Positions 1,700 to 64,000 of a DNA stretch of 64,000 nt are shown here, piece by piece. Location of the stretch: positions 24,718,688 through 24,782,687 of the forward strand of contig CM119263.1 in the NCBI GenBank assembly GCA_051294375.1. Reading direction: 5' to 3'. The notes below the pieces were generated by a model. The model was given only the letters and a program-made list of their open reading frames with translations, was not told the DNA's origin and searched no databases. Positions within the stretch are counted from its first letter, which is position 1. Every line of letters begins with the position of its first letter. A program made the position numbers and the translations under genes. This DNA comes from Paraspadella gotoi. Its lineage: Eukaryota; Animalia; Chaetognatha.

Positions 1700-1985
1700 A
1701 AAATTTTTTTTGAATTTTTAAATTTTAAGACCAGATTCAGATAGCTCATAAAAAGTTGTCTACACAAAGTATGATTCTTTTTTAAATATTTTTATGATAA
1801 GTGTGTCAAAAATAAGAAAAACTATAAAAAATCATCATCATCATCATCTTTCGATGATTTTATCAGTTTTTTATATTTTCACTTAGAAAACGTAAGAATT
1901 TTTAAAAGCTGTAATTATATTTCTTGTTTAACTTTTTATGCTCTATCAGAATCCATCAAAAAATTTTAAGATTTTAAAAAAATAT
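1700..1985. repeat. AT-rich, internally inverted dispersed repeat (MITE-like)
   Basis: gattcagatagctcataaaaagtt (~1735-1758) is an imperfect inverse of aactttttatgctctatcagaatc (~1930-1953), around a (CAT)n core. Related sequence occurs at ~22600-22800 and ~30350-30520. Confidence 0.5.
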
Positions 1986-3139
1986 TTTTTGCTCTATATA
2001 GTAATATAATATTTTTAATTAGGCGAGTACCCTCAGAAGAAAGCATTTTTGACAAAAAATATTTTAATACCATAATCTATGGTCATGATAGATTATTTTA
2101 ACGCTGTATACATTAGCATTTAAATTTCATCGGCTATGGCTATTAACGCAACCTCTTTTCTACCCTCAGCTCTGCTCGCCTTTTCCACTCCCTCCACTCC
2201 CCGCCTCCCTTTTGTTTTCTTGCTGCCATCATCCGACCCCCTCTACTCCTTCCCCAACCCTGCCTCCCCCTCAACTCCCCCCAACTTCCCCGCATGGGCG
2301 CCGATGACGACGCTTCTCCCGCCGCCATTTTTGTTTCGCGACAAAAGAGGCAAAGAAGAAGAAAGAGGATGAGGAAGAAAGAAAGAAAAAAAGAAAGAAA
2401 GAAAGAGTAGGAAGATTCTGCGAAAAGTGGTAAAACAACATGAAAATCCAAATTGAATCAGCGTCGGGTGGGAACCATGCTTAGCGTCGTGTATCGTATC
2501 GTATCGCGGGACCGAGAACTGAGATTTTGCTTTAACATTAAGAGAGAGAAAAAAATAATCCTTTAGCTTCGTTGGCCGAAGGATGACCCCGGCCCCTGGG
2601 GCGCGATTATCTCAGGGGACCAATAAAACTCCACTCGACAAAAGGGTAAGTTTCGAAAAATGACCCCCAAAAAAGGTGAGGATCTCGTCTCGAGGGATTT
2701 GAGGCTTCGGTCGGTGCGAATGGCCGGCCGAGGAGCCGATGGCTTCACCCCGGTTGGCTGGTATTACCCGGACGACCGGAGGGACACGGTTTGCTGGGGC
2801 TGTTTTTCGTTTCGAGCAAAACCATTCGACGAATGAATGAGTACAAAAACAAAGTTTTTATGTTTTCTAAATATTTATTATTGCTAAATTTTAAACATTT
2901 AGTTTTTGCTGAATTTACGACGCTGTAACTGTAAGAGAAACAAAAAAGAGAAAGAGTGAGGGAGAGTGAGAGTGGTAGGAGAAGAAAGAGAGGGAGGAAT
3001 TTACCCCGGCAATAGAAATATTGAGACAGAGAAAGAGAGATAGAGATTCTTCCGCAGAGGGACAGAGACAGAGATCTTGACGCTTTCAAACTCTTCACCC
3101 ACAACTTCAAAATCCGCTGCCCTTCTCTACTCGTCTCAC

Positions 3140-3319
3140 CCGTAACGAGGAGGTCCTCGTAGATCCTGACGGCGGTTGGCGTCCCGATTTCCTTGAGACG
3201 TTTCTCGTGGACGACGGAGCGCTCTTTCGTCAGACGCCAGAGGACGACGTCGCCGTCGTCGTCGACGCTGACGAGGTTGGCGCCCGAGGACGTCAGGTCA
3301 GCGATCGGCGCCGCGTGAC
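3140..3319 (-). CDS. WDR54: WDR54-like protein, internal exon (180 bp, missed by ORF track)
   Basis: gaccag|...|gtgag boundaries. Translates GHAAPIADLTSSGANLVSVDDDGDVVLWRLTKERSVVHEKRLKEIGTPTAVRIYEDLLVT, a GH...W WD repeat resembling WDR54 GHQMPITDI...VTADDSGLLCVWR. Confidence 0.85.
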
Positions 3320-42380: not shown

Positions 42381-45300
42381 CGGGGAATTTTCAAGTCCTT
42401 GACTTCCTTCTTTCCGCTTCGAGACTTATTAGGCTCTAACTCAGGACCTCGACTAAAGGATGCTGGCAGAGAGGACAGCGGCAGAAGACCTTAACTGAGG
42501 AATGAGAATGGCAGAAGAGAACTATGGCAGAAGGTCTTGTCACAGAATAGAAATACAAGATGAAAGAAAAACCACAGGCTGACGAGTAAAGGCAGAGAGG
42601 AGCTAGAAATGACAAATATGGGATAATGGTCGACTTTAGGACGAGTCGAATTTATTTTGAAAAAAAAATGACGGTTTAAAACCGTTTGTTATAATTTGTA
42701 AAATGTGAACTGGAAAGCGTTAATCGAAATCCGTCAACGTGACACCAGATGTAAATATTTAATCTTCACCGGAAATTCACAACTTTTTTTTTTAAATAAA
42801 GAAGAGTGAAGGCGTCTGGACGGAGTCATTTCTCACTTCCTTCTTCGCTTTCCCGTTTTTTTTTCACTTCAATTCACATTATTCACTTTACATCACAAAC
42901 GATCTCTCTTTCGGTGAAACTACTTCGCATGACTGAGTTTTTCACTTTACGACTCGAAGCGTCTCGAGTGAGTTCAGTGATTTACAGTGAGAACTTCGAG
43001 CGATGACGATTTTATCTAGGAAGGGTTTTTTTTCCTCGACTGCACATGAAATGTTTTCTTTTATGCGATTCACTGTGCGCTAATTGACAATGCCGAGGGC
43101 AGCTCGTACAATTTATAATTAAGCTTTTTCCATTATTTTTGTTTTAATTGCTAATTGCTAATTGGAGATTTTGAATACGGTGAATACAGTTTGGGTACGA
43201 AAAAAAATTTATGAAAATTAAAGAGAGTGAATGGGAATTTTTAAATGTTTTTACTAAAAATAGAATATAGAAATAAAATAAGAAATGTGAAAAATGTCAG
43301 TTATAAAAGCAAATTATTTTTATGGAACGTCTTGGACAATAATAATTAACTAAAGTGCGAAGTCATTGAACCAAATTTTACGACATAACTAAAACGACTA
43401 AAGGCGACAATTTTTTGTTTTTGTTTAAAAAAAAAGTTTCTGATCTGGCGACAAATTCCGCCTTTCAAAGTTCGAACCTTACTTTTTTTACTCAAGCTCA
43501 AGAAAGATGAACTTACCCACGCAGACTAATCTCTCGCCAAGCGTCGTGATTCCGCGCGCGAAGCTTGACTTCGCTGAAATACAAAATGGAAATGAAAATT
43601 AATAACTCGTAAGGAAAATGAAAAGAAGGATGGGAGGGATGGGAGGNNNNNNNNNNNNNNNNNNNNNNNNNNNNNNNNNNNNNNNNNNNNNNNNNNNNNN
43701 NNNNNNNNNNNNNNNNNNNNNNNNNNNNNNNNNNNNNNNNNNNNNNNNNNNNNNNNNNNNNNNNNNNNNNNNNNNNNNNNNNNNNNNNNNNNNNNNNNNN
43801 NNNNNNNNNNNNNNNNNNNNNNNNNNNNNNNNNNNNNNNNNNNNNNNNNNNNNNNNNNNNNNNNNNNNNNNNNNNNNNNNNNNNNNNNNNNNNNNNNNNN
43901 NNNNNNNNNNNNNNNNNNNNNNNNNNNNNNNNNNNNNNNNNNNNNNNNNNNNNNNNNNNNNNNNNNNNNNNNNNNNNNNNNNNNNNNNNNNCCGCCATAA
44001 CTGCCAACTCGGAGGAACGGGGTCGTTTTTTACGTTTCCTGCGTCAACGTCGTCGACGTCGAGATCTCTGGCGGCGGAGGCGGTTTTTGTGGCGCGTGNN
44101 NNNNNNNNNNNNNNNNNNNNNNNNNNNNNNNNNNNNNNNNNNNNNNNNNNNNNNNNNNNNNNNNNNNNNNNNNNNNNNNNNNNNNNNNNNNNNNNNNNNN
44201 NNNNNNNNNNNNNNNNNNNNNNNNNNNNNNNNNNNNNNNNNNNNNNNNNNNNNNNNNNNNNNNNNNNNNNNNNNNNNNNNNNNNNNNNNNNNNNNNNNNN
44301 NNNNNNNNNNNNNNNNNNNNNNNNNNNNNNNNNNNNNNNNNNNNNNNNNNNNNNNNNNNNNNNNNNNNNNNNNNNNNNNNNNNNNNNNNNNNNNNNNNNN
44401 NNNNNNNNNNNNNNNNNNNNNNNNNNNNNNNNNNNNNNNNNNNNNNNNNNNNNNNNNNNNNNNNNNNNNNNNNNNNNNNNNNNNNNNNNNNNNNNNNNNN
44501 NNNNNNNNNNNNNNNNNNNNNNNNNNNNNNNNNNNNNNNNNNNAAGACGAATAGACGCTTTTTTTTTTTATAATAAACGATTATTAACATGAAATCAGGA
44601 TAAAGTTGCTTAAATTGCGTTCTGCACAATTCATTTCTGAGCAAGAGAAACGATTTTTGGTTAGTTTTAAATATTAACACGAGTAATTAAATGCGGATAT
44701 CCAAGATGCCTTTTGTTTTGATTCAATATGGAAAAAAAAAATAGAAACAAAGAATAAAAAGATAAAAACAAAGTGAAACAAAAAAGGGAAATTAGATCCA
44801 TTTAAATTTTAATTGAAATTCTTTGCGACAACATTTTGCGCTCACTTTTATTTCCCTGAGAAAAAGTGTAGAAGATCTACAAGTGACAATGTTATTTTAC
44901 AAACGTGCATCCAAATGAATTTCAAGATATGTCTCCTCCAATTGGACGGCGCATTCAGCTCCGCGCCACAAAACAGACGAGACGATCGAAAGGAAGTCAC
45001 GCGACCCCATCGACTTCCGACTCTCCCACTCCTCGCGAATATCAACAAGGATGATAGAGAGCGACTATCAACAACGCTCGCGACGCCGACCATATTTCCA
45101 GATATTTACCACGACAAAATATGCGCACCAACGGAACGACTTTACATTGTGGGTGTGTTAAGTGTGTTAAGGGTGTGAGGATTTTTTTCCCATGGGAAGG
45201 GTTTGGTGACTGTTGCGCTTGTGCACACCGAAGGGGATTTTAACAACTGGACTATTTAGAACTTAATGTGCGTTAATTAACAGAAGCCGGTTTGTATTGA

Positions 45301-45832: not shown

Positions 45833-48767
45833 GAAGTGTGATGTGGAAATAAAGCGCTGGAGGACAGAGGTAGAAAAAAAAACATGTTTACTTGAAGAAA
45901 AATTCACAAAAAGAGGAGAGCTTGAGACGGAGGAGAGACGAGAGCAGAGGAGAGTGGTGAGAGAGAGAGAGGGAGAGAGAGAAGAAGTGAGAGAGAGAGA
46001 GAGACATAGAAAGGAAAAGAAGACGCGAAAAAAAGTAGAAGAAGAAATAAAGGAGAAAGAGCCAGAAATCGAGAAGAACCGGCAGTTAAAAGCCTTTTTG
46101 ATTGTCGAAACGCGAAGGCAATTCGCAGAAGGAAAGACGATGGAATGTAGCCAGGGGGGGCGCCGGTGACCAGGGGTGGCGATGTTGACGTGGAGGGTAA
46201 GGTTCAACGGCCCGTGACGCATGTGATTGATGGAAGCAAGAGCACGGCCGTCTGAGGTTAGAGGCGAAGAAGGAGTCGCCCGCTATCATGCATTTTCGTC
46301 TCGAGACGACCTCCATCTCTTTCTCTTTCTGTTTCTTTTGATATTTTATGACAGGGCCCGTCAACAAACCATTTGCCCGCCGTCGCGCGAGTTTAGTTCC
46401 ACACTGTCAACCCATGACCACAGAAGATTAGTCAGGGCATTTGAAATAATACTTTTAAATTCAGAAATCCGAAGAAATCTTGCGAATTTAATAATAATTT
46501 AATAATAATAAATAAATAATATTAATAATAATAATTAATAATATATATACGTCGACGGAATATAATAATAAGCAGCTGCGAAGCGTAATTACGTCAAAGT
46601 TCTATTCGACTCATAACTCCGTGAAATAAAGCAGTTAATGGGTAATGTAAATAAGGCTCGAGTATGCTTGCAGCTAATGTCACATTTTAATAAATAAATA
46701 CAAGTAATAAGAATTATATATTACATAATATCACTTAAATGTGCAAGTTAGCGTTACATTTAAATCTGAAGGTATTACTATAATACTTAATATTTGCTAC
46801 CGCTTGCGAAATTTTATTTTCTGAACAATTAATTTATATATTGAATATATATACACATCCTTATCCTAGATACTGCTCTACTCTTTCAGGCCAAACTTCC
46901 GCTGAAAGCGAGGGAGCTTCCACACGACGTCGTGTCTTCTCGTTCGCTAGGGTACTCGTATTTTTCTCTTCCAGTCATCATAAGGACGTTCTCGTTGTGC
47001 CGTAAGCCTCATTTTTTTTATATGAATTCGGGACACGAGATATCATTCCTCTATTTGTCTCTGATCACTCAGATAGAGTTCGACAGAACTATCCTCCTCC
47101 AATCCGCCGTGGGTTTTGTTCGCGCCGTACACATCTTATATATATCTTTTGATTCGCGAGTTAAAGTGTAAAAGTTAAGTTATATCTGATCGCTTTCGCC
47201 TTACATGCCGCAATTCCTCCCTAGTCGGCGAAGGACTGAGTCTGCAAGGACGGCGATTACGGCTTGGAGAGGAGAGAGTCGTTACCGTCACATCGTGACG
47301 ACAACGGATACCGCGATGATCGTCAACCGCTGGCAGCTTACGCGCTATCGGCCAGCGCCTGGGAGGACATCACAGGACAAGCTACGTGATAGCAATCCGT
47401 CGTCAGCGAGTCTAGACGAAAGCGCGTATGGAGACCCAAGGCCGGGATGGACTTCTGGATACGGACGTAGAGTACAGCAGTGCATTGACACGGCATGATT
47501 TCACCGCACGGTATCGCTTGGGTCAGAGGAGACCGAGGAGCAATGGGGACGCTCTGGCACGGAAAACGAGGAAAACCTTGTTCGCCTCCGTTAAAAGTTT
47601 TACTTTTATATTTGTTTACGGGAAGTATAAGTTATCGAGGAAAAAGCCGGAAGAACTTTCAAAAGTACGGCTGCGACTGCCAAGGGACATCGCGAAGTGA
47701 TGATTTCCATTGGCGACAGGACTGGAGATGTGACGAGACGTTCTGCCTGAGGCGAACTATGGACCGAGACTACCAAGGGAGTCGTCTAGAACGAGGGGTG
47801 AGAGAAACCTTGATCAGGTGGGAAGTCGATTTTGAACGACCTTGTAGATGTTCGGTGATGACTGGCGATCTTATACCTAAGTCGAAAGTATATTTATCAA
47901 TGATGAAATTTTACGTAATCTGATTAAGACTCCCGACGTCTCGATGGGAGCGGTTTGGAATGTCAGAACTTAGAGTTTCGCCTAAAAAGTGATATACCTT
48001 TATATTCCCTCTTGAAGCCGCTTCCTCACGACTCTGTAGTAACAGTGTTTCTTCCCTCCCCAAACCCACAGAGCTGCGCAATACCCCTCTTCTTCGCGGT
48101 TTTTTTTGGCACCAAAAACACCCACATGACGTCACGTCGTTTGGTATTCGAGCCGTGGGCGTTCCTTGGCCGAGGTATATTCACCCGTCAATTCCCATGG
48201 GGAGAGACTTTTCAACGAGGCTTCATGAAGAATTACAGAACGACGTGATGGTGACGGAGTGGGCTTACCTCTAGTTCATAAATCGTTCTTTTGCTATCGT
48301 CACCTANNNNNNNNNNNNNNNNNNNNNNNNNNNNNNNNNNNNNNNNNNNNNNNNNNNNNNNNNNNNNNNNNNNNNNNNNNNNNNNNNNNNNNNNNNNNNN
48401 NNNNNNAATTAAATTTAATCAAATTAGTAACAATTTTTAAAAAGATTTAGAGAACGCATTAAAAATATTCAAAATCACAAAGACGTTGACGAAAAAAAAT
48501 TTAAAAATTTCTGTTTTTTAAATTATTATTATTTTTTACGTTTCACGTCGTCAAGAAAAAAATCACTAAATGAGGAAGAAAGAGAAAAGGAGAAAATTTA
48601 AATCTGGATCGAACCTTAACGAGAGCACCGCTTTTCTTCATTGAGGAAAGTCGATTTTTCTGGCTTGAGTGTGTTAGTTTTTACACATAAAAGTTTATAT
48701 ATGTAAAAGAACATCCATTACTTACCCATATTATTTACACGAATCAAAAAACCCGAAAATTCTTCAC

Positions 48768-48813: not shown

Positions 48814-49389
48814 TGTTTGATTCTCACTTCGCGCGAACTTCGGCAAAAAAAGTCTTTCGATATTTTCAGCTTAAACTTCATCGATCAAAAATGTTTTCAG
48901 TAGCGGAAGCCGACCAAATTTAAATTTTAATGGGAACAGTATTAAACGAATCCATTATTGGTATTAGTTATTGTGTTAAAATATTTTTTTGCAAAAATTT
49001 TCCGAACCATGAGTAATTCGTTAATTAAAATTATTATATTGCTATGAAATTGGTACAACCAATATAAAAATTATCCATTCATTTAATAAATAAGCTATCT
49101 TGTCCCTGACTTTGGACAGGCTTTGGTGGTTTAAGGCCTCCATCACTCTTACAAGATAATGACATAGCAGGTCCCTGCAAGCTTTCAATCAAGACTCTCT
49201 CACAGTCCCGTTTATTCACTCCCAGAGAGTAGTATATGAGACCAGGCTAATCAACATTACTTTTGTTAGAGCAGAATTGACCAGTGAAATATGTAGTAGT
49301 AAGTATTAGTGGCCGGAGCGTTGGCCATAGTAACCCATGTGGGTGTCCGGTGTGAAGGGTGTGTTAAGGGGGTTAAGTGGGGGTGGTCC

Positions 49390-49850
49390 GTGAGAGTTTC
49401 GAAATTCTCCTTGACCAGGTTGGAAATTTTCCGGCCAGAAGTTCGCGCCGGACTCCGGGTTCCAGAAAAAATTTGTGGAAGCAGTTAGTTATATGTTATT
49501 CCTTTAGTTCCTTTATGTGGTCTGACTGTGAGAATTTCGAAATTCTCCTTGACCGAGTTGCAAATTTTCCGGCTAAAACTTCGCTCTTCACTCCGGGTTC
49601 CAGAAAAAATTTGTAGAAAAAGAGATTCTCTCTCTATCTCTCTCTCTCTCTCTCTCTTTCTGGCCGAAGCCAATAACAAAGAAAATTGCAAATTTTCCCA
49701 GGAAAATTTGAAAACTTTGGACTGTATTTTTCTACTACGATCTCCTTTTTATTTATATATATATTTTTTTTTGCTCGTACTAAATTTGAAATTTTCCTGG
49801 GAAAATTTGTAATTTTTGGGCTATATTTCTCTACCATGATATCCTTTCTA
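49390..49850. repeat. Subterminal direct repeats containing palindromes
   Basis: A ~90-bp unit occurs at 49390 and 49528 (period 138) and contains GAGAATTTCGAAATTCTC. A ~60-bp unit occurs at 49689 and 49788 and contains AAATTTTCC-NN-GGAAAATTT. Confidence 0.85.
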
Positions 49851-50582
49851 TCTCTACAGGTTCATTGTCGAAATTAACCTTGCTCTTTTGTTTCATTCCA
49901 GAATTCAGCTTTTACGGGCGATCTCAGAAAAAATCTACCGGGGTCGTACCAACGATCGAACCTCAACGATGGACTGCTCTAAAATTGACCAATGAAAGCC
50001 AAGTTTGTCGGTTCACTCTAAACCAATCAGGGGCGGAGTTTGGACAAAACGGCCGTTTGACAATAAATACTAATAATTTTATATTATTTGAGTTTTCTAT
50101 TAAAAAATATTGTATATACCAGACAAATCTACTACATTAAGATATAGTATTAACATTAAAAGTCGTATTTTACAATGCAGTTTTGAATCGGCCAATCATA
50201 GTTCGACGTTGGAGCCTTCTCAGTTTCTCGCTTCTCATTGGTTCGTTTTTAAAGCACCCAACCGTTGAGGTTCGATCCTTGGTACGACCCCGGTAAATTT
50301 TTTTATGCCAATTCTTCATGGGGTGGAGATCCACGGTTTGGCTTCTGCGACGAACGAGAAGATGAGACGGCGGTACATAGTACTGCTTTTCGAGGACGAG
50401 GATATGACATTACACTTCTTAAATTTCTCAAAAGATTGTCAAATATATATTATGGTTTTTTTAGTCAGTAGTCGACATAGTCCTAGCTCTGTTTTTACTT
50501 TGACTGTCGTAGGCTTTTAAACAAAAACATTGTACGATTAAGCATAATTTTTATTCAGTTAAAACATTTTTTAAGATAATAT

Positions 50583-51534
50583 CTACATCCAATACAAATA
50601 ATTGCGATATCGCTGGCTCTTAAACCGACCCCTAGTTTTAATAATTTTGGCTGTTTGTTTTAACTGCCAGCAACGAAAAATTGCCTTTGCTTCTTCGAAT
50701 TGGACGCCGACCAAATTCAACGTCGACAAAGAAACGGTATTAGTTGACGTAGCGATGTCACCAGTTGTCCTTAGATGTAAATTGTCCTTAGCCAAAGCAC
50801 AGAAACGCCGCATGTTGAGGTAGAAAGTTGGCGGCCCCGACTTTCTGATGTCGCGGCCATGACAGTACTCTATTGGCTGAAATTCACAAGAGCAAAGGCG
50901 GTCGTGTATGGAGCAGTACCTAATAGGGGTTAATATTGGAAACTAAAGACAATATACAAATTTACCCACGGAAATAAACAATTTCAGAAGTTAATATATA
51001 CCTTAGCCTTACTCTTCCGTCGTACAAAGCCGTGTCGTCTAAAGCGCGCCTTTTTTCGCCGATGGGTTCTTGGTATACGAAAAGCGTCTCCATGCTCGAG
51101 TCGTGTCTGAGGTTTCCTACTGGGAGCTGCAAAATCTCGATCGGCCAGCGACTTAAGAACGATCTAAGGTCGTGTCTTTTCGGAAGACGAGCCCAATAAA
51201 GGTGGAAATTCTCAGGAAACATGTCCCATTTTAACCGCCGGTAAGAGTATCGATCCTCAAACCTCCGATAAAAATTAAACATCGATAAACATTTAAAAAA
51301 AATGTAAATATAAAAAGCGACTTAATATTTCAGAAAATAAACATACATTTGACGCTCGTCGTCATCTAAGAACGCCGACTTCTGCCCCACGTAAATGTCG
51401 AATCGCTGGAACTGTGGTACTATTCGTTGGCCACCATCTGTGAATATCCGCCCCTGTACTTGAACGTGTTGAGTCATTCGACGAATTTTATCATAACTGC
51501 CGTAAAGGAGTGCATTTTCTGAAAACCTACTCAT
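50583..51534 (-). CDS. Orphan 3-exon gene B (261 aa), paralogue of gene A
   Basis: Exons 51534-51347, 51262-51002 and 50919-50583, with both GT-AG introns in phase 2 (the first acceptor is a weak GAG). Gives a continuous ORF, MSRFSENALLYGSYDKIRR...RGRFKSQRYRNYLYWM. Confidence 0.75.
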
Positions 51535-51712
51535 TTTAATGTTTTAAACTTTTTTTAATTTTTTTTTTATTTTAACATTGAAACCTGGACCGAATAAAAA
51601 GTCGAAATAAATATAACGAAACACAAACATATTAATACAATAATACATCGAGTTAAAGTTAGAAATTTGCATTTGTGTAAATCTATATAGATATCCACCT
51701 GTGTATATGGAT

Positions 51713-52700
51713 CTATTTATAAACACCAAACGGAAATAGGTCAATATGAGGTTGTCTACATGGACAGGGCATCCCATTCTTACACGAAGCCGCAATGAAG
51801 GCACGATAGTCCTTTGGCGAAAAATCGCCATTCTCCTTAGCCACGTAATGCGCGTCAGCCCGAACGTCCCACCAGTAGAAAATTTCGACGGCTTCGTGAA
51901 ACTTGACGTCCGCTAGCATGAGGGTGCGCATACTGAGATTGGTTGTAATCAAATCGCCTGCCAGCTGACTGTGTAAGTTTTCTTTTGCGAAGGTTTGTAG
52001 GCGTGTCTCGTCTATGAAAAACCTCGTCTCTTCTTTGCTCTCTGGCATAATATTCACAGAAATAAACTCGATGAAAGCAATGCGCTTGGACGATTGTCTG
52101 GAAAAGTATTTGTAAACATACTTTTAAATCGATTAAAACTAACCATATAAAAAGTAATCGCCTCGCAGATATGCCTCACCGATGCTCAAGGCTGGGGTCT
52201 ACAATGGCACTGTCGTCCCATGTCCAATTTCTTTGATTTTCCAATCGCCTCTTGCGCAGACAAAGCGATCTCATCTGCCGATCGCCAAATTTTCGCCCGA
52301 CTTGGAGCCGAAGGATGTCGAGTGGGAATTTTCCCGCGAATATCCTGCGAAATTGTTCTTCTTCCGGGATGGCGATCTTATAGAATTGCCAATATTCGTT
52401 GTGTTTGCCCGCGAATCGTGCCCACCTTTTAGATCTTGCCTCAAAACTACAATATTTAAATATTAGAATATTAAAATATTGTTTTAACGTAAATAAAATT
52501 AAAAACGAGTCTAACCTTTCCCTGACCGACTCGTCGAGGAACAGCGACCGCTGCGCCCTGTGGATTTTGAACGGACAGCCCACGGTCCCAATCCTTTTTG
52601 CACAACCCTTCATTGATTGCGTTTCTACTCTTATGGACCCGCGGCACCGCTCGATCTTATCCCAACACGCGTAGTACAACCCCCTTTTCACTTTCTCCAT
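51713..52700 (-). CDS. Orphan 3-exon gene A (278 aa), paralogue of gene B
   Basis: Exons 52700-52516, 52446-52180 and 52097-51713, with GT-AG introns of 69 and 82 bp, both phase 2. Gives a continuous ORF, MEKVKRGLYYACWDKIER...CPCRQPHIDLFPFGVYK. Confidence 0.78.
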
Positions 52701-53074
52701 TTTCTTCTTTTCTCGTACAATTTTAAAGTTCGATGGCTTTAAAGTCTTAAAGTTTGTTAGTTTTTGATATTTCTTTATTCGATAAACAGTAAAAATATAG
52801 TCAATTTTTAACAATATTTAATATTAAAGTATTAACATTATACAAATTACAAATGTTAATTCGAATCCTAGCATTAACAACACATCTGTGTCTCCGATCA
52901 GAAAAAAAATTCGACAAAAAATGTCACAAAATGAAAATCGGATCTGGGTGGATCGCGGTCCTTCGGCAAATTCGACCATTCAGAGTTCGAGATCAAAATT
53001 AAGCATCTCCGATTTGCTAATGCGTTTTTAGTCACCAAAAAAATCGGATCGAGTGCTCGTTTGACAAAAAAAAT

Positions 53075-53128
53075 AGACCAATAAAAAAAGACAAAACATT
53101 TCATTGGTCGACGCCCCTATATAAGGGC
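53075..53128 (+). promoter_or_regulatory. TATA box with CCAAT boxes upstream of the membrane-protein gene
   Basis: gcccc-TATATAA-gggc at 53113-53128, ATTGG at 53103 and CCAAT at ~53079. ATG follows at 53184. Confidence 0.6.
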
Positions 53129-53183
53129 AGAGTTTTTTCTAGGAAATTTACTTTATTCACGGCTTCATTCTGCGTCGACATGC

Positions 53184-54257
53184 ATGCTATCAAAATTGCG
53201 GCTTTTTCTCTCTGCTTTGGTCTCTGTTCGTGGCCAGGTTTTGGATTTAAATTCAGTCCTCGTTGATTACGATCTACGAGAATTGGGTGTCCATGGTAGA
53301 CCCGCCTTCGGAAATTGCCAAAAAGGATGACAACCAGGACCAGAAAACCGACTACGAAACTGACCACGGAACTGAAGAACGACAACCTCGAGTCGATTTC
53401 GATGCTTCTCGAACAAGGGTGGCCGCAGCCGAAGGGTTGACGCCAAACCCGAAGTAAGAGAATTCAGAGGAAATTCGGCCCCAGCGGTTCCAGGTTTGTC
53501 CCCGGACAAACTGGTAGCTGATCCGGACGTTTTTCCCGCCGAAGTGGCTAAGCCGAAAGGTGCAGTCGCTCCGGAAGCGGAAGAATGGAAGGATTTGGCT
53601 GCGGAACCACCTGCAGGCTTGTCCCCGGACAAACCTGTAGCTGATCCGGACATTTTTCCCATCGAAGTGGCTGAGCCGAAGGGTGCAGTCGCTCCGGAGG
53701 CGGAAGAAGAGAAGGATTCGGCTGCGGAAGAACCTGCAGGCTTACCGACGTACGAAGAGGCAATTGGTCTGGCTGCTTCTCGATCCAGGATGGCTGAGCC
53801 GAAGGGTGAAGCTGACCTCGTGGTTGAGAAGCAAAAAGATTCGATTCCCATACCAACAAAAAGGACGACTACCACAACTACCACGTCTACCATTACGACA
53901 ACCACGACAACTACGACAACGACGAAACCTCAGCCAAAGGACAAAGAGGCAATTTCTGAAAGCGGTTCTAGCCTAAAAACGATCGGGACTAAAGTCGCGG
54001 AAATTGGTATGTCGACTCCACAGATTGTCGACCTTGTCTTCGCTGTTCTGGCACCATCCGGCGTGTTGGCGTTCCTGGTCGGTCTTGGTGTTAAGTGTGT
54101 GAAATTAAGACGGCAAGGTTTCTCATACAGGGAAATCGCTGCAGTCTTATTTTACATCTTATTAAGCCGATTCTGCCCAGATCGCTTGCGCGTCTTCGAG
54201 GATCCGAGGGACCAACCACGCCGCCCGCCGGACGTGATTGTACTTCCTGCTCCCTAA
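53184..54257 (+). CDS. Putative membrane glycoprotein: signal-like N-terminus, 2x41-aa acidic/Pro repeats, Thr-rich stalk, C-terminal TM segment(s)
   Basis: ORF 53496-54257 has a 123-bp repeat (53496 and 53619), poly-Thr, hydrophobic IVDLVFAVLAPSGVLAFLVGLGV followed by KCVKLRR, and a second hydrophobic stretch IAAVLFYILL. Upstream MLSKLRLFLSALVSVRG (ATG 53184) joins only through 1-2 frameshifts. Confidence 0.65.
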
Positions 54258-54914
54258 TGGCCTCGTCCACCCAAACTGCCTTTTTTAAGGCAACCAACTT
54301 ACCCAAACAGCCCTTTTTAGGGCTACCAAATTGTCTAAAAAGATCGTCATTCATAATAATTCTTATTCTTTTGGAAGGTCTCGATAGTGCATGCCTAAGA
54401 TTAGGAAGCGTGGTAGGAATAGCAATGCATATCGTCTGTTGAGAATTACTTTCAGCTTAATTTGCTACCTTAAAATTAAACTCTTTTTTTTCGTACAAAC
54501 AATATAACAGTAATCTTTATTATTACTACATGAAAGCGACAAAAAAAATACTAAACTAAAGTAGACAATCCGCGCATTTAAAACCTAGACAAGTTTGTCT
54601 AGTGTGGCACCTTCGCTCCAAGGTTTTGATTAGAAATGCATACTGACATTTCTTCTGAAAGATAATACAAAAAGGTTGAATAATAAGTCTATTTGAGCAA
54701 AAATATACAGTTTGCAAACAATTATCATAAGTAAATTGTTTCTATTTAAATTTTACTTTCACCGAACGCAATTTTGGCGACTTTTAAAAAAGTACTTAAA
54801 ATTTTTTTTAACAAAAAAAATTTAAAAAAAATATACTTAATTACCAACCCTAATTTGGTTAACCAGGGCCAAAGTAAAAGTAACCAATATTTCATCGTAT
54901 TCAACGAGACTCAC

Positions 54915-55343
54915 CACAATCAGATCGAAGCTGTATGTTGTATTCTCTCCCTTGTCTCGTCCATTCCCGGGCAATGATGTCGTTTTCTCTGCGCATTGAA
55001 AAATTGAAAATTTAAATTTAAAACCAAAATTACCTTAATCGATTAAAAAAAATCTAAATCTATAATTTTTTACCTCACTGGTTCTATATCCTTTTCAGTT
55101 GCTGTAAGTCTGGCAACTGATTCTCATCAGCGATCGCTCCTCGCGTCTGTAAAACGTCAATTAAGAAATAATTTAAAAATGACAAAATAAATAACTAACG
55201 TAAAGATTGACCTGTTATAGCACAACACATTTGATTTACATACTAGGTGATACTTACAGCGCTTTTAGTTTTCCTTTTCCTTGATTATCGCAGTGCGCCG
55301 ATTCCTCCCAAGACTTCTCGACGTTGTTCGCTTGGTTCTGCAT
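54915..55343 (-). CDS. Possible small multi-exon gene
   Basis: Exon-like blocks with GT/AG ends: 55343-55258 (MQNQANNVEKSWEESAHCDNQGKGKLKA), 55146-55074, and 54988-54915 (ENDIIAREWTRQGREYNIQLRSDC). One indel is needed to keep the frame. Confidence 0.3.
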
Positions 55344-55609
55344 TTCTATTGTTTAGAATCGGAGATTAACAGAACCTAGTAAGTAAATTTAGAAATTATA
55401 TATATAAAAAGAAAAAAATCGAAAAACGACGAAAAAAAAATACAAAGAGAAAAACGAGGAAAAAAAATCGCGACGATGAGAGAAGAGGGAGAGATTCGCA
55501 CGCAGAAGGAGATTAGAAAGTTGTGAATGTGAGAATGGTGACCCAAAAGACTCTCCCGAGCACGCCGTCGCCGTTGTTGTCATCGCCGCGTCATCGTCGC
55601 CGCCGTCTA

Positions 55610-56095
55610 TTGCCGACCAATAATAAAGGGGAGAATTCTTAGAACCAATCGCGTTACTAGACAGCAACACCCCCCATTGATCTTCGGTTTGCGCCAACGA
55701 ATCACAAACGGGGAGAATTTATCTAGCCAATCGGGTTGCGAGGCGCGAACCTCCCTGGACTCGATCGTCGACAACGTCCGCGCCAACCAATCGCGATAGA
55801 GAGAATTTCGACACCGATTGATGCGAGACGCCAATTTTGCGCCACTCGATCGTCATCTTCGTTTTGAAATTGAAATTGAAACAGGCAAGAATTTCGAGAA
55901 CCAATAAGCATTTACCTACCCCCCCCCTCGGCTGTGGTCGATGCCTTTGTCGACTGTGCCGGCGTATCACGAGAAGTGAAAATTTTGAAAACCAATTGGA
56001 AAGCAGGATGCATCGCCTTTTAAGGCAATCTGATTAGCCAATCGGTAAATCTAAGAATTTGGAAATTCTCAGAAAAGCTTAGCGTCAGTATAAAA
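55610..56095 (+). promoter_or_regulatory. CCAAT-array promoter with TATA box, between divergent genes
   Basis: Eight same-strand CCAAT at 55617, 55645, 55727, 55787, 55831, 55901, 55992 and 56038. TATAAAA at 56089. Confidence 0.65.
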
Positions 56096-56153
56096 GGTCG
56101 TTATAGACAAATTTTCATTTTTTTTGATGGGAGAGAGAGAGAGAAAGAGAGAA

Positions 56154-56191
<38 letters not shown>

Positions 56192-56466
56192 GAGTTTGGC
56201 ATTAAATTCGACATATTTGTGAATTCCTTTTGGCGGCTCACGGTCAATTTCAACAAACTTGTCACGTGACTCGCCCCGCGGTCAATTGAATCCGAGTCCT
56301 ACCAAAACTTTCTATAGTCGAATATAACCTCGTTAAAGGCATCACCGGAGAGAGGAGAGAGAGAGAGGAATGATGATGATTAACCCCCTATCCCTTTTCC
56401 TCGGCTATTCCCAGGCCCCCTCTCCCTCTCTCCTATCTCTCTCTCCCATTCTCTCTCTTTTTCTCA

Positions 56467-56500
<34 letters not shown>

Positions 56501-57000
56501 TTCTCTTTTTATACTTTCTCCCTCGCTCTAACTCACCCTCGCTCTTTTTTTTTCCTTGCACCGCTGTTTTATCCACCATTCCTTATCAATAGCATCACGA
56601 CTATATCTGTCAGACGGTCTGACCGTCTCGGTTCATCTGTCGCCCTCTGTCTTCCCATTTGACCACGTCTCACCCATCTCAGCTTTTCACCCATCCCAAC
56701 TTTTAACCCTAAACCCAATACCCCACTTCTGGTCAAATGTAAGGAATGTGAGGCAACGGGTTAAGTAGATATTCTCCGTCTTTCCAGTCAGTTATTCAAG
56801 AAAAAAAAATTCGAGTTATTTTTTTTATAACGAAATGCAATCAACAGAAAATATCTTGGTGACGTTTTGAATATTATTTTCTCAGAATAATTAGTTTTTC
56901 TCTGTTTCAATTTCTTTTAATTTGGTTTTTTTTTAATTTTTAAATATTTTTATATCGATAGTAACAACAATAACAATTTCTGTTTTGTTTGTCAGCGCAG

Positions 57001-58625
57001 ATGGCGGAAGAAAGTACTCAAATGGCCAACTTTTTCTACAACGCCGTCACAAAGCTTCAAAAAGAAAATTCGAGTCTCCACGAAACATTAACAAACAACG
57101 CCCACCATATCATAAAATGGAAATCCGATAACGACTTAGATTTTTTGAAAACTCAGCCAGATAAAATTCGACAGGCGGAAGTGGACTTGGCGTCTATGAA
57201 AACAAAACGCGATTCGTTAAAAAAGGAAACTTCTCCGGAAACGTTAGAAACATCTCGGTTGATTTTAGAATGCGATAAAAAACTGGCTGAAGTGGAGAAA
57301 GAGAAGGAGGAACTTTTAGAGAAAATTAGACAAATGGACAAACAACTCTCGACGAATTTGACATCGAAGTCGTCACACGAACGACGATTGAGACATTTAG
57401 AAAAACAAGACGAAGATAGGTTTTTACTTAAAAAGAGAAAGGCCGACGAAGCTTGCAACGAAAGAGAAACAAAGAAGGTTAGACTAGAAAATGATTACGT
57501 CGATTTTGCGAATTCTACAATAAAACTTAATTTCTCCGATGACGAGGACGTCTCTTACAAAATGCGAGAAATAAGGTTGGTCTCAGGATAGTTGAACATA
57601 ACCGATATTGCGACCATCACAATAGTTATGTACGAAATTGTGACTTTTTGTTTGGATTGAAGACTCTATTGAATGCAGACGACGAGAGTCCAAATATTTG
57701 CAACTTAAACGTTAAACCAATTAAATTGAACGAAGAGAAACTGTCAACCGTTCCAACCCAAGGCCGTTCCAAGGGATTCCACGACGAAGATTCGCCATCA
57801 ACGTCACTCGAAGCGACAAGAAAAAACAAGGAGATCCGAGCGAACGAAAACACTAACGAAAAAGAGAACGAGCAAGAAACGGTACCATCTACAAGCCTCG
57901 GTGAAACGGGATCTTTTTGTCAAATGCCCCACGACAACGAGTTGCTACCAGAAAACCCCATTGCATTTTCGTCGCCAGAACAAGTGGAAGAGAGTAACTA
58001 TTTTTTCGCGAAAACGCCAACTCCTCCAAATAAAATTTCAACCAAATCAACTGCCTTCGTGTCAACGCCTTCTCCAAAAAAAAAAACAGTTAAAAAATTG
58101 TTTACCCCCCCGTCCAACTCCCCCATCCCACATCCCACGATGCAAACGCAAGCGATCCTATGTGCCAAGAAAAAGAACCGAATGTGCGAATTTTAAACTT
58201 TAGCCCACCTCCCGAAATCGCCCCTTCATGGAATCTTAATAGAGTCACCATTTCCACTCCAGATAAACCAGGCCAATTTGGCCAACGCGATCCCATAATC
58301 AGCGTCACGGTGACGCCGACAAATAAAAAAAAGTCACTTTCACCCAAAGAACAAGATAGTGTCGAAGCATTGTCAGTGTTCATTAATGACTGCGATAGCC
58401 ATGGAAACGTCGAAGGTCTGACAACAAATGCATCCAGTTTCCAGCTTTTTACACCAGACGAGAGGCCAAGTACTAGTACGGGTTTTGATCAAACAAACAA
58501 TACCTTGGTCCCGATAAATCACCAGTTGATAGAAATCATGGGTAGTTGGGACGACGCGGGCACCGCTGAACCAGTAATAACAGATGACATCATGAAAGAA
58601 GCCCTACAAACGGCGAGTTTGTCAG
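57001..58625 (+). CDS. Coiled-coil plus Ser/Thr/Pro-rich disordered protein, 5' part (three overlapping frames)
   Basis: ORFs 56989-57591 (heptad K/E/L-rich, KKRK), ~57545-58196 and 58160-58654 overlap end to end and join by two small frameshifts. Acceptor at ~56995; phase-1 donor G|gtcagt at 58625. Confidence 0.6.
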
Positions 58626-59111
58626 GTCAGTGTCTATTTCATTTATCATTGTGATGTTTTTTTTTTGTTGTTTTCTTTGTTGTTTTTTTTTTGTAATGTA
58701 TATGAAATCGTTGTTATTCCGTTTTTCACAATACAAAAAAAAATTAATACATTTCGTTCACACTTCGAAACATATTTTGTGATAAAAATACTGTGTCTTG
58801 TTAAATGCCATCTTGTTTATTTTTGAGGAATGGTATAAACCAAAACTATATTGTATTTTTTTTAAATTGAAAAGAAAAAATGAAAATATATTCGGGAACT
58901 GAAAATAAATTACAACTAATTTTCAATATTCTGTCTAATTTCACAGACCAGGCCTTATATGCAAATGAGATCCAGAAAGAGTCACTTTAAACAAATGAGC
59001 AAGCTGGGGCAAGCCAGGCCACAAAAAGTTGATTCTAAACTTTATTTTTAAAATAAATATTTTTTTTTATTAAATGTTTGCATTAAATTTTGTTTATATT
59101 TCACTTAACAG

Positions 59112-60064
59112 ATTCGCAATTACAACGAGTCAATTCGTCGACGAATCAGACGGCGAACCCGGTTTTTGCGAAAGTATTCGACGGCGCACTTCCAGTCGAG
59201 GGCCACGTGGACGTCGTAATAGATTCGCAATTACAACAAGTTAATTTGTCGACTGATGACCAGGCTAACTCGGTTTTCGCGACAGCATTTGATGGGGTAC
59301 TTCCGGTAGAAGCCCTCGCGGGTGTTGTGGCAAGTTGGACTCCCACTACAGCGATAGAGGATCCGGCCAAACCTAGCTTAAAAGGGAAAAAAAAATACAA
59401 AACTGTAGCCAATTTGGTTTCGGCGTTTGATCTAGAGAATCCGACGTCGGCCATGCAACTGCTAAAAAGGATATGTTTATTGTGCCTCAGGATTACAACT
59501 AAGATGAAGGTCCATAACCTGGCAATTCACCTCGCAAACACTTGTCTCGTGGCAAAAAAACTCATCCCTGCATTAGGTTCACAGATAAATGGAAACGTTG
59601 ATGATACAAGATTCAGCGCTTTCATTTGCAACCACAACCACTGCAAAGACACCATTGTCGCTCTCGACTCCGACTTAGAAGATGGTGCCTTTATTAGACA
59701 CTTTAGAAAAATGCACGCAGGCACATATTTTCGAAAATGTTTTAAAATGAATATGAGGCGCATCTCCCTGAGGGAGACGGCGCTCAATTTTTATTACTGC
59801 CCCTTTTGCGAGTCCAATTCCCGCGTCATTGATAACTGCAGGGGGGTAATTATGTGTCACATTTTTGAAGATCACCCTGGGGCACAAATGCCATGCGTTA
59901 TTTGCTCCGTCTTAATTGTGGCACAAGACTTGAGGAGTCACATTGTTAAACATCTGAAGGAGGACGACCTCCTTCAGATGAGAGGAGAACGACTCTCTGT
60001 AGGGGCTGTAACTTTGAAATGTGTTCCATCAACCATGTCAGGACACATTCGCCAAATTGCGTAA
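59112..60064 (+). CDS. Terminal exon with a 2x37-aa repeat and about four divergent zinc fingers
   Basis: ttaacag acceptor, phase 1. Motifs CLLC...HLANTC, CNHNHC...HFRKMH, CPFC...HIFEDH and CVIC...HIVKH. DSQLQ...FDGxLPVE repeat with a 111-bp period. Confidence 0.72.
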
Positions 60065-60298
60065 AGGGAATTCCAAGGTACACAATGGAAAATTATGGAA
60101 AAGTTTTCCTATATGATTGCACCGACGTTGTCAAAACTCAGGTCTGCTGTCTATTTGCAGAGTTGCCATAATTAAATTCCGAGGCGAAGAGTTTATATCC
60201 GAAGAAGCCCAGTATCTCGTCAGTTTTGTCGTCTTTGACTTTATTACACGATTAGCCCATGTCTATGCCTTTTTATCAGGCGTTTTTATTTTTTTTTA

Positions 60299-60400
60299 TT
60301 ATCTAGTCCATGGTCGATATTTCCCTTATTTGTATGACTTATGTGGTTTTTATATTATCTAGTCCATTGTCGCTATTTTCCTTATTTGTACGACTTATGG
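60299..60400. repeat. ~57-bp tandem duplication
   Basis: ttatctagtccat(g/t)gtcg(a/c)tattt.ccttatttgta.gacttatg occurs twice. Confidence 0.8.
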
Positions 60401-60703
60401 GGTATATATACACAATGTTAATTTTTATTTCTAAAATTTTATATATTAAATATCGATAAACCTTGAATTTTTTTTTTCATAAACAAAAGGACAAGCTGAA
60501 TCAAAATGTTAGATCTTTATAGATGTCGAGTTGATTTTTCGAGTGTCTTTTTTTTTCTCCATTATCGATATAACCATTTTGCATATAGTTAGTTATATTT
60601 TTTACTCGTTCTCAATGAAAATTGTTATGCCTTTCCTGTCTCAGCAATATAAATCTGGTACATTTTCATAGGGCGTTTGTTTTTAAACATTGATAAATTT
60701 AAA

Positions 60704-62651
60704 ATGGAACAAGAAGACAGCGGTCAATACATGCTTAACATCAGACAGGACGATATCAGCTTTTTTAAAAAACCTTTCCAAGAATCTCTGTGCTTTAGAG
60801 AAATTTACCAAAAAATTAGCACGAATAAAACTTGTTTAATAATTTTGCATCACAAAAACAATAATCCGGACATGGTAACGTGTCTGCATGTTCTATTCAA
60901 AGCCCTTCATAAATCTAAAAAGAGGTCCATAATTTCGGAAATATTCACGAGGAGTGGACTGCTTTTCCCCAAGCACGGAGATAACAAAGAGTTTGAAAGA
61001 TATTTTCGGGACAATTGTGTAACATTTCTCAAGCAATTCCAGATCGTCATTTCAGAATCCCTACTAAACTCCGAGACACAGGAGTATATATGGAATCGTA
61101 CTCACGTCCAGTCTGACAATTATCTCCCAGTCTTAAATTCGCTCGACCTAATTCACGCTGGTCTTAGCTCACAGGAGTTCAGGCTCACTCGCCCACAATC
61201 GGCCTGGTCGACCTGCCTAGCACCTTTGGCATTTTACAAGACGAAGGGGCGCAAGAGCTCTTCGTGTGTGACAACCGAAATCGATAGTGATTCCGATGAA
61301 AGTGATAGTAAGAGAGTCAAAATAGTCGATCCGGAGATACAAAAACTACAGGACATCGTTAAGAATGACAAATCGGTTGTCCGGAAAATGAAATGCTACC
61401 AACTTTTAGAAACACNNNNNNNNNNNNNNNNNNTTAGAAATTATGACCAACTAAAGTCTTCGCTCACAGCAGATGAATTAGAGGTAGTCGTCTGTGGGAG
61501 TGAAAATGTAAAAAAGGTGAGCGAAGAGATAATTTTTAACAAAAACCTCAAGTTTTACGAAGAACGATTTAATCTCAGTTATTTTGAAAAGCTTGACTCA
61601 AAATTTGGACCGGCTTTAAAAACGGCACTTGACAACCACAGAGAAGTTATCTTGCAATCAACACAGTATTTGAGGAGATTTTTAATTGCTCAGGGAATTT
61701 TCGACGTTAAACTATTTTTGGCATTTTTGGTCAAATTTTTCAGTACGTCTCATCTTAATTTAATTGGAAAAGAAAACCCAGAAGATAAATGGCTAAAGAG
61801 CGACCCCACCGTGAACGCTTCGAATCGCAAACGAAACTGTATTTATATCTCAGGCGAGTTTTAAAATATTGCAGTAATGTTATAGTAATATTGTTGTGAG
61901 TTTCTAAGAAATGTTATCCATCCCAACGAATATAATAAAATAAACGAAATTAAAAATTTTAATGTGTAATTAATTAAATTCTATTTGATTTGTAGGTTTA
62001 TCAAACACTGGCAAGTCGCTACTAATTAATCTCATTGTTGACTGTCTTCAATGTGGCTCTCTCGTGACTGGTTCGTCATTCGCTTTTTCGGATTTAGCCG
62101 TGCAGGGGTGAGATCATGTGACTGTTCAGTTGGACGTCGCCATATTGGGCCCATCTTTCCTTTCTCCTCTGTTGTTTTTTTTTTTTGCCGCAGCGTCGAA
62201 TGTTTACGCCACGATGAACTTTCAACGGGATCCGGTTCAAAAATTAGCGTCAATGCCCTGAAACTACTCTTTGGTGGGGAGCGTCTTGGCGTCAATCGTA
62301 AATTCAAATCTTCCCGATTCATTTCTGGCATTCCAGTTATCGTCTCTTCTAATCAATCTATCGACGAATTATGCGACAACCCAGTTGATATGCCGCGTTG
62401 AGGTCACGTTCAGTCGAATTAAAATTTTCCGTTCCAATTTTAAACGAGAAGCACTCAAAGACATAGCCCGCGTGAGGCAAGCTTATGGACTGCCCGATCA
62501 CATTAAAACTATCCCCGAGAATGACAATTATTTACACTCGGAGGCATTATTAATGTTATTTAAGTATTATTATAAAGATTCTTTCGGGCAACCACCCCCC
62601 CTCGTCGACGATATATCAGTTACTGATTTTTTAAACCCCCGTTTTAAATAA
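60704..62651 (+). CDS. Spliced superfamily-3 helicase/Rep, parvovirus NS1-like
   Basis: Exons 60704-61853, 61996-62107 and 62194-62651. Splicing rebuilds Walker A RKRNCIYISG|LSNTGKS, FAFSDL, Walker B CLRHDE, B' LKLLFGGERLGVNRKFKSS and motif C PVIVSSN. An Arg-finger-like ALRSR appears in a shifted frame near 62390-62410. There is a short N gap in exon 1. Confidence 0.85.
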
Positions 62652-62814
62652 AAAAAATATATGCGATGGGCTAGAACCCCAGACCTTTTGGTTATGAGAC
62701 GAGACGAACTCTCCCTCTCTCTCTCTCCCTCTCTCTTCTGCATTTAATTTTTAAACTCGTTGTCCTCGATACCGAGGTGATTCGAATTGATTTGTTTACA
62801 GAAATTTCAACGAC

Positions 62815-63458
62815 ATGATGTCCCAAGACGAGAGCTTTTCGAATAAACTGGAAGATCTCCTTCGCGACGAATGGAAAAATGCGATGAATGCCACTCCCAG
62901 TCCGATAAAGGGCGATCTCATGCAATTGCCTACACCAAAACACGTCCCACGACATATAACACACAAAAGGAACGAGGATGACCTCGACAATACATTACCA
63001 GACAAGGACAAACGGCGCATGGCCCATAAAGGCGACAAAGACGACTTGGACAAAGATTCTTTCTCGGACGACGACAACATCTTCAAAGACGAAAAACTCA
63101 TTGCGGGCCTCGAGGATCGCACACCTAAATATGTATATGAAAAGAAAACCACCACCCCAAGAGGCCACAAAACTACAAAAAAAATTTTATCTCGGGGGAA
63201 CTTTAACTTCGATGCTGACAATTTTCCAAGCCAATCGAAGCAATCGTGCTTAGACTTTTTTTGGGGAAAAAAAAACCAAATCATGGCTATGAGACACGGA
63301 GGATAAAAATAAAAGTGTCCTTAGCAACGCGAGAAGCTCGTTCGTGTGGAAGAACGCCCAATCTCCAATTCGAACGCCCACGCCAACCCCTAAAAGATTT
63401 CACGACGCCTCGGTTCAAACCGAGGACGATATCCAAAAAAAAAAAAGCAAAACAGTGA
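62815..63458 (+). CDS. Charged low-complexity orphan protein (D/K-rich with basic C-terminus)
   Basis: 163-aa ORF after a tttacag acceptor. It probably continues into the 63246-63458 frame through a slip in the A-run at ~63266. Confidence 0.5.
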
Positions 63459-63752
63459 CTATCACTACTACAGAAGTCAGTTATTTCGAATACTAACTAC
63501 ATCGTGTCAACTCTCAGCCATTGTCTCATCTTGTAATAAACACAACGCCTCTCTCTCTGTTTCTGTTTTTCTCTTCTCTCTCCATCTTCTCTTTTCTTCA
63601 TTTCTTCCTTTTTTTTAAACCCAGTTCCATCTAATGTGTACATTTTTTACGTTTTTATTCAATGATACTGTTTTAACCCCGCAATATATTTTAATGTATA
63701 TGTTTAAGGTTTGTCGTGTACTAACTAATTCGAATTTTTATTCCCATTTCAG

Positions 63753-64000
63753 ATGAAAATTTTATCGTTTCCTTCGAGTTGACGCTTGTCCAGTCGTGTG
63801 AATCACCCGTTGCAACTTTAGTTTTCGACTAAACCAATTGGGAAAAGGTTAGTTTTTATTTTCTTTGTTTTTTTTTTCCGAGAAGTTTTATATAAGTTGT
63901 TATCCGCCCTTACCAGCTATCGCCGAAACAAACACGTCGGTGATGACATTTCCACGGTTGTCGTCGAGATGATCCAAGAGTCTTTCCCCGCCCGCCCATT
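63753..64000 (+). CDS. Exon-like fragments of a further spliced gene running off the window
   Basis: tttcag|63753...AAG|gttagt at ~63847, then ttaccag|63917 translating YRRNKHVGDDISTVVVEMIQESFPARP, open to the end. The first block has a stop in the best frame. Confidence 0.3.

Follow-up and report, generated by a model that had tools for sequence, protein, structure and literature searches.

A virus-like element occupies the right-hand part of the window, by which we mean the whole 64,000-nt stretch analyzed here (Paraspadella gotoi, assembly GCA_051294375.1, contig CM119263.1, positions 24,718,688 to 24,782,687, forward strand). The element is real and abundant, and it is not yet assignable to either the Mavericks or the parvoviruses; as far as it is visible (49228–64000), it fits no described class, as a first-pass annotation of the same DNA had stated. 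We lean towards reading it as the left arm of an oversized, intron-bearing Maverick/Polinton-like linear element that captured an NS1 gene, a reading in which we place slightly more trust than doubt. The AGTAGT end at the insertion breakpoint points to a protein-primed element of the Maverick/Polinton type, whose NS1 may be captured cargo. A Maverick-like element with a captured parvovirus gene is a hybrid that has been proposed and, in the literature searched, not yet described.

Left Boundary and Terminal Region

The left end and its surroundings comprise the following features:

49043–49227, plus strand: high-copy host repeat forming the target site, its 3' side cut by the insertion, with CCAGAG as the 6 nt left of the junction (from alignment and run contigs)
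49228–49234, plus strand: probable left terminus AGTAGTA, the Maverick-type (AGT)2 end motif (motif in PMC8097293)
49295–49301, plus strand: second AGTAGTA followed by a G-rich stretch, an alternative terminus
49390–50303, no strand: terminal noncoding region with repeats, a candidate terminal inverted repeat (TIR) or origin
48307–48406, no strand: scaffold gap of 100 N, outside the element and ~0.8 kb to its left

The stretch is present in 9 of 11 public runs, which cover one organism, six samples and three studies, and four of the nine (X3, X5, X6 and X8) were analyzed; the runs were located by using this DNA, and one of the samples may be the window's own source. Two further copies of the host repeat in the window align with it as far as ~49227, beyond which it lacks their continuation. 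Contigs that pass 49227 into a common alternative sequence (108 in X3, 73 in X5 and 80 in X6) match the continuation of both these copies there. AGTAGTA begins precisely at this junction, and its only other copy in the 64 kb, counting both strands, lies 67 nt further on at 49295. The left boundary is thus probably at 49228, where the host repeat stops and AGTAGTA begins, and not at 49295, the start given by the first-pass annotation.

Among vertebrate Mavericks (AGT)2 is the commonest end; their genes are intronless, their copy number is low, and they are flanked by target duplications of 6 bp (PMC8097293; this and the other papers cited below are drawn on from parts of their text). Where Mavericks/Polintons carry 5'-(AGT)2 or (AG)3 at the insertion boundary, the element has the former, as seen at its left end only. 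Short terminal repeats of this type serve protein-primed initiation.

The terminal region that follows contains a direct repeat of 91 nt (49390–49480/49528–49618, 87%), iterated GAAATT(T/C)TC words, and inverted pairs at 49682–49709/49789–49816 and 49928–49984/50247–50303. A parvovirus-type hairpin was not found at this end, either by folding the first 126 nt from 49295, which fold weakly (-11.5 kcal/mol), or in the repeat region of ~1 kb. Summed depth near the left end was excluded as evidence for a TIR because it is inflated by internal inverted repeats and microsatellites. Outside the element, a G-rich word at 45151–45180 resembles the element's terminal 49348–49386; it possibly marks another element end or is a low-complexity chance resemblance.

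Abundance and Divergence of Copies

The first-pass annotation had taken the block for an oversized virus-like element, and contig depths support a multicopy mobile element and not a single-copy host block, with the element deeper than the host in all four runs. Element and host contigs stand at 851 and 88 (X3), 57 and 18 (X5), 49 and 16 (X6), and 13 and 2 (X8), giving ratios of 9.7, 3.2, 3.1 and 6.6, respectively, the X8 host figure being near the detection floor; against the deepest host contig used, the ratios are 9.5, 2.6, 2.5 and 4.7. The read-depth check that had been proposed therefore places element contigs at ~3–10 times the depth of single-copy host contigs, a ratio that varies between samples and, as a contig depth, is not a copy number. 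These ratios derive from single long contigs; short host contigs, mostly of lower depth, were left out, as was one 8.3-kb X8 contig matching the window over 182 nt only. Since the X3 host contigs show 0 differences over 2485 nt of the window, the depth comparison is made within one organism.

Element depth lies above that of the host and is flat within each run across nearly all of 49.5–64 kb, the exceptions being 50.7–51.8 kb, at host level in X3, and 54.2–54.7 kb in X6. The former, in the region of gene A (50667–51828), is not lower in X5 or X6 and hints that the set of genes A and B varies between forms of the element. To the left of the element, 46600–48306 is barely covered in X3, X5 and X6, though X3 matches host DNA at 1–4900 almost exactly; X8 covers 47762–48342 at a depth of 12.9, element-like for that run, and this may be another mobile piece beside the gap. 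The coverage holes (46600–48306 in three runs and 50.7–51.8 kb in X3) carry no evidential weight.

The abundant form changes its relationship to the window near 57 kb. To the right it is nearly clonal with the window (<0.5% divergent; 4 differences over 3485 nt in X5 and 12 over 4195 nt in X8), and contigs of 3.5–5 kb with at most 12 differences come from three studies. To the left it is 3–8% divergent, and the window's own letters are found at about host depth in X3 (~83–117). We take this to mean that a single older copy is integrated and that the abundant form either has multiplied recently or exists free; near 57000 the window would be a recombinant copy or a collapsed assembly. Because the near-identical abundant form recurs in three studies at differing levels, the element was probably active recently. 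Contigs of element-level depth extend 3.6–4.5 kb beyond the window (longest overhang ~4.5 kb, in X8), which puts the size of the element at ~19 kb or more; the entire block is not spanned by any one contig.

Gene Content

The ~7 genes modeled in 49228–64000 (A, B and D on the minus strand; C, E, F and G on the plus strand) and one promoter region are as follows:

60704–62651, plus strand: gene F, parvovirus NS1/Rep-like superfamily 3 (SF3) helicase, with exons 60704–61853, 61996–62107 and 62194 onward
50583–51534, minus strand: gene A, orphan, three predicted exons, ~261 amino acids (aa), open
51713–52700, minus strand: gene B, paralogue of A, three predicted exons, ~278 aa, open
53180–54257, plus strand: gene C, predicted mucin-like type I membrane protein with 41-aa repeats, a Thr run and one transmembrane helix
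54760–55343, minus strand: gene D, small multiexon orphan, model uncertain, broken in the window
55570–56100, no strand: CCAAT-rich region, a putative divergent promoter, including a TATA-like word at 56089
57001–60171, plus strand: gene E, predicted regulator with a coiled-coil-like start, a Ser/Thr/Pro-rich middle and C2H2-type fingers at its end
62815–64000, plus strand: gene G, multiexon orphan of acidic/basic low complexity, with a frame break near 63.3 kb, running off the window

Gene F encodes a protein of ~500–600 aa and is the NS1-like SF3 helicase that the first-pass annotation had recognized. Its exon at 62195–62398 matches Parvo_NS1 above the curated Pfam cut-off (E 1.9e-5), and all 11 matches of the helicase in PDB at E<=10 are adeno-associated virus (AAV) Rep or NS1 chains (best E 0.011). 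The three NS1 SF3 helicase motifs of the Parvoviridae (A, B and C) are present: Walker A, GLSNTGKS, forms only after splicing, across a GC-AG intron at 61854–61995, and Walker B (CLRHDE) and motif C (VIVSSN) are located 39 and 45 residues on. The gene is interrupted by an 18-N gap at 61416–61433 and a frame break near 62400.

Exon 1, searched against 1.84 billion representatives, matched one protein, P0001 (E 1.3e-4, 27%), and a profile search found four proteins among 7496 candidates, all ENA sequences. Two of these relatives, P0001 and P0008, lie on ENA contigs of 2–4 kb and are 70% identical to each other. The spliced gene F model aligns with them over ~400 columns at ~24% identity (scores 208 and 211, against shuffle maxima of 76 and 69, n=300), which supports both gene F introns. 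In place of the H-V-H/H-A-H nicking motif of the relatives, the window has C-L-H, an assignment based on an alignment whose N-terminal part is not significant alone; the C-L-H stretch shows 0 differences between the window and an X3 contig. Both relatives' open reading frames (ORFs) end just past FGGEEIE in V-C or V-S, as if reading into a GT splice donor, judging from the protein. In the Atlas, P0008 is linked to eight clusters, mostly labeled as eukaryote (top score 0.94; phylum known for three members only), and to Parvo_NS1 clusters at 0.92. P0001 and P0008 form a lineage of their own among divergent NS1-like Reps, one that keeps H-x-H, is probably intron-bearing and, as far as the searches show, is undescribed.

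Other comparisons were negative within their scope. The predicted fold of gene F exon 1 is uninformative (pLDDT, the predicted local distance difference test, of 32) and gave no Foldseek match at E<=0.001; exon 1 had no match among long proteins, the Rep N-terminus none in the Atlas, and P0001 none in PDB. Among the viral and metagenome contigs covered by locus scans no relative turned up, and with it no second genomic context, and the best phage tblastn match reached only E ~0.5.

The first-pass count of ~7–8 packed genes agrees with our models, which give 49228–64000 a coding share of ~53%, and the short introns that it reported correspond to eight predicted introns of 69–321 nt and 55–84% A+T in the gene models. 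One X8 contig crosses 58507–62701 unspliced; as it is only a guess that X8 represents RNA, this contig is no test of splicing. Frames are interrupted in genes C, D, E, F and G of the window sequence, and some breaks in the right arm may be assembly errors given the small gaps of run contigs against the window there. AG/CT microsatellites make up 0.85% of the element versus 3.5% of 1–48306, and the element's dinucleotide signature is near that of the host. Of the divergent TATA/CCAAT promoters that had been described, one gains support from CCAAT boxes enriched at 55570–56100 (nine observed vs 1.1 expected, 0/2000 shuffles), and TATA-like words occur at 53120 and 56089; CCAAT at 52960–53180 is not significantly enriched (two vs 0.5 expected, p 0.09). 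Both of these intervals were picked by eye.

Genes A and B are the orphan paralogues named in the first-pass annotation: 27 of the 78 residues aligned between their last exons are identical (35%, E 2e-14), and the spliced models align at scores of 223–239 versus a maximum of 52 in 500 shuffles. The predicted introns interrupt codons 63 and 150 of gene A and codons 62 and 151 of gene B, all in phase 2. Because donor strength and alignment score guided the choice of these models among 16 and 7 open splice combinations, the matching intron positions are supportive and not independent proof. A protein search with the A5 query gave one chance match only, the A/B exon alignment had no match in PDB, and the predicted fold of gene B exon 3 is uninformative (pLDDT 45, best Z 4.4). 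A possible resemblance of the two to nematode F-box-associated domains gained no support from Pfam.

The membrane protein reported earlier corresponds to gene C, with its one predicted transmembrane helix and a frame broken near the 5' end in the window. The zinc-finger protein is gene E, which has three clear C2H2-like motifs at 59627–59953, one further, doubtful regular-expression match and a zf-Di19 match at E 0.0035, with frame breaks near 57.6, 58.1–58.2 and 60.0 kb; its zinc-finger exon had no match in the protein search.

The host gene said to lie nearby has a WDR54-like candidate, of which one exon was detected (E 0.004, below the cut-off; one WDR54 match among 124 ORFs); it is not near, lying ~46 kb off at the far left across 15 N gaps. 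Within it, 1532–2142 is a high-copy repeat of ~610 nt, and in one X6 contig 1524 is directly followed by 2143, the repeat being absent, an insertion polymorphism. The left part of the window also contains inverted duplications of 86–97% identity (19765–24096/29107–33162, 15011–16769/18005–19756 and 13429–14684/24915–26141), which are probably haplotigs or scaffold repeats.

Comparison with Known Systems

With the Mavericks/Polintons (adintoviruses, MELD viruses), the element shares an AGTAGT start at the insertion point, low and variable copy number, size class and a compact two-strand layout (PMC8097293; 10.1101/2023.08.22.554363). Polintons measure 13–25 kb, have TIRs, and vary in copy number between strains (10.1101/2023.08.22.554363; PMC6431247). 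The element differs in its predicted spliceosomal introns, its NS1-type helicase, the lack of a core gene in the first 14.8 kb and, if the core is present, a probable size of >25 kb. The intronless state of intact vertebrate Mavericks concerns core genes, whereas the genes seen here, predicted to be spliced, are accessory.

A parvovirus integrated in a Polinton has been postulated as the intermediate of bidnaviruses, and the element resembles both the bidnaviruses and this postulated parvovirus–polintovirus hybrid in its parvovirus-type SF3 helicase, Polinton-like nonhairpin ends and, if the C-L-H assignment holds, lost or degenerate nicking (PMC4061559). Bidnavirus segments are 6–6.5 kb of single-stranded DNA with a stand-alone helicase and a jelly-roll capsid (PMC4061559), and bidnaparvoviruses (PMC8502044) and large and circular NS1 viruses (10.1101/2024.03.25.586562) have also been described. 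In contrast to the Bidnaviridae, which combine pPolB, an NS1-type helicase and a parvovirus-like capsid on such segments, the element is at least 19 kb, integrated, far richer in genes and predicted to contain introns, keeps a long N-terminal domain, and shows only the helicase of the three.

Parvovirus genomes are ~4–6 kb with hairpin ends, whereas the element has at least 19 kb and a weakly folding left end. What it shares with parvoviruses and endogenous densoviruses are NS1 helicase motifs A, B and C and the occurrence of multicopy endogenous forms, such as those of tapeworms, which are small NS1–VP units (PMC6880638). It is far larger, with at least six extra genes and an apparent C-x-H in place of HUH; no terminal hairpin was found, and profiles and a motif scan revealed no VP gene or PLA2 motif in the visible arm. 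A plain endogenous densovirus is rejected on size and gene number.

Helitron helicases are of the Pif1-type superfamily 1 (SF1). A Helitron is rejected because the helicase of the element is SF3 and its protein has ~500–600 aa against >1500 aa for RepHel; the end motif is also different. The likeness lies in large, intron-bearing, gene-capturing elements that combine Rep and helicase (PMC6431247).

Capture of Rep by larger viruses is known from aviadenovirus ORF2 (PMC7747739, PMC12017204) and U94 of human herpesvirus 6 (HHV-6; PMC4063692). In these viruses, as here, the NS1 domain belongs to an accessory gene of a larger genome, and in aviadenoviruses this gene lies towards the left end; the element differs in having no visible adenovirus or herpesvirus core gene and in being inserted in an invertebrate-like host chromosome. 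Full-text searches of the literature revealed no element of at least 19 kb with Maverick ends, NS1 and introns, their scope not extending to Repbase, subscription journals or the supplementary maps of 10.1101/2024.03.25.586562 (618 GenBank submissions).

Origin of the Element

If the element is Maverick/Polinton-like, as we favor, it starts inside a host repeat with its AGTAGT end, and a protein-primed polymerase for its copying and an integrase for its insertion are predicted to be encoded in the arm right of 64000. By analogy with bidnaviruses and aviadenovirus ORF2, its NS1 would have been captured from a parvovirus and may be an accessory motor for unwinding whose nicking domain has degenerated. 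Gene E is a putative transcriptional regulator, A, B and C are candidate host-interaction cargo, and a long stay in the host nucleus would account for the introns, promoters and host-like base composition. That the element is built around its Rep, as the first-pass annotation had it, was not shown: the AGTAGT end points to the Maverick/Polinton type, and at the position of the HUH histidines of its relatives the window Rep apparently reads C-x-H.

Several observations weigh against a Maverick/Polinton-like origin. AGTAGTA occurs at chance level (two seen vs 2.8 expected) and offers two candidate termini, so that its position and not its number is the informative part. No TIR partner or target-site duplication (5–8 bp in Mavericks/Polintons) was seen, the right end being beyond the window. 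Searches with Pfam (on 18 + 7 sequences), PHROGs (on 12) and a motif scan did not find pPolB, integrase, capsid, protease or packaging ATPase in the visible 14.8 kb (49228–64000): the sole HHCC-pattern match, sought for integrase, lies across the C2H2 fingers of gene E, the only Walker A, sought for the packaging ATPase, is that of the helicase, and the PHROGs matches are weak and of unknown function (E 0.013–0.049). A full core gene set would bring the element to at least 25 kb, at or above the known Polinton range, and the predicted introns contrast with intact vertebrate Mavericks, which are intronless. Finally, the alignment score of the N-terminal 190 residues alone is reached by 79 and 93 of 500 shuffles, and the distant relatives of the helicase keep H-x-H and look like complete parvovirus Reps, which fits Rep-driven replication.

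Such replication is central to a less probable explanation, in which the element represents a new class, a large virus or self-replicating transposon with spliced genes that is driven by NS1/Rep and lacks pPolB. Here Rep would nick the end-proximal repeated words and unwind for the host polymerase (rolling-hairpin or rolling-circle), yielding free copies plus occasional Rep-mediated integration. In the visible 14.8 kb no replication gene other than the helicase was seen, the abundant form is near-clonal across three studies with sample-dependent depth, as free replicating copies would give, and large and circular NS1 viruses have been reported (10.1101/2024.03.25.586562). P0001 and P0008 also keep H-x-H and have ORF ends that fit a splice donor, and the Atlas ties P0008 to Parvo_NS1 clusters. 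Against this, the window Rep is apparently without the first HUH histidine in a stretch identical in an X3 contig, the left end folds weakly (-11.5 kcal/mol) with no long hairpin, its motif is Maverick-like, and no capsid was recognized. The element would then, as we suggest only tentatively, found an undescribed family of invertebrate nuclear DNA viruses or self-replicating elements, spliced and at least 19 kb in size, that use a parvovirus-type Rep-helicase as replicase, multiply as clonal free copies at levels that depend on the sample, also integrate into chromosomes, and have distant intron-bearing relatives in metagenome contigs.

We think it unlikely that the block is the endogenized part of a different large nuclear DNA virus, one resembling adenoviruses, herpesviruses or nudiviruses, or a nonautonomous DNA transposon laden with cargo, in either case with a captured Rep that later gained introns. 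Its spliced genes, immediate-early-like zinc-finger protein, mucin-like protein and duplicated orphans near the end resemble the accessory genome ends of large viruses, and Rep capture is documented in aviadenoviruses and roseoloviruses, but Pfam and PHROGs detected no gene of such viruses in the visible arm, and the AGTAGT end coincides with a clean insertion point. It is very improbable that the block is a chimeric assembly product or a cluster of host genes that includes a domesticated parvovirus gene: the host-like dinucleotide signature, the lack of a contig spanning the whole block and the divergence switch near 57 kb, where the scaffold may join two family copies, would suit this explanation, but it is largely refuted by depth above host over nearly all of 49.5–64 kb in all four runs, and genes E and F are joined in single contigs (X5 record 14, X8 record 30) and the block start interrupts a host repeat.

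Whether the right arm holds pPolB, integrase and capsid genes decides between a Maverick variant and a new class. With pPolB and integrase, the element would be a living Polinton–parvovirus hybrid of the kind postulated en route to the bidnaviruses (PMC4061559), and, if Maverick-like, it would have spliced genes, unlike the intronless vertebrate Mavericks. Without them, a parvovirus-type Rep would run a replicon at least three times the size of a parvovirus, and the element would represent a new class.

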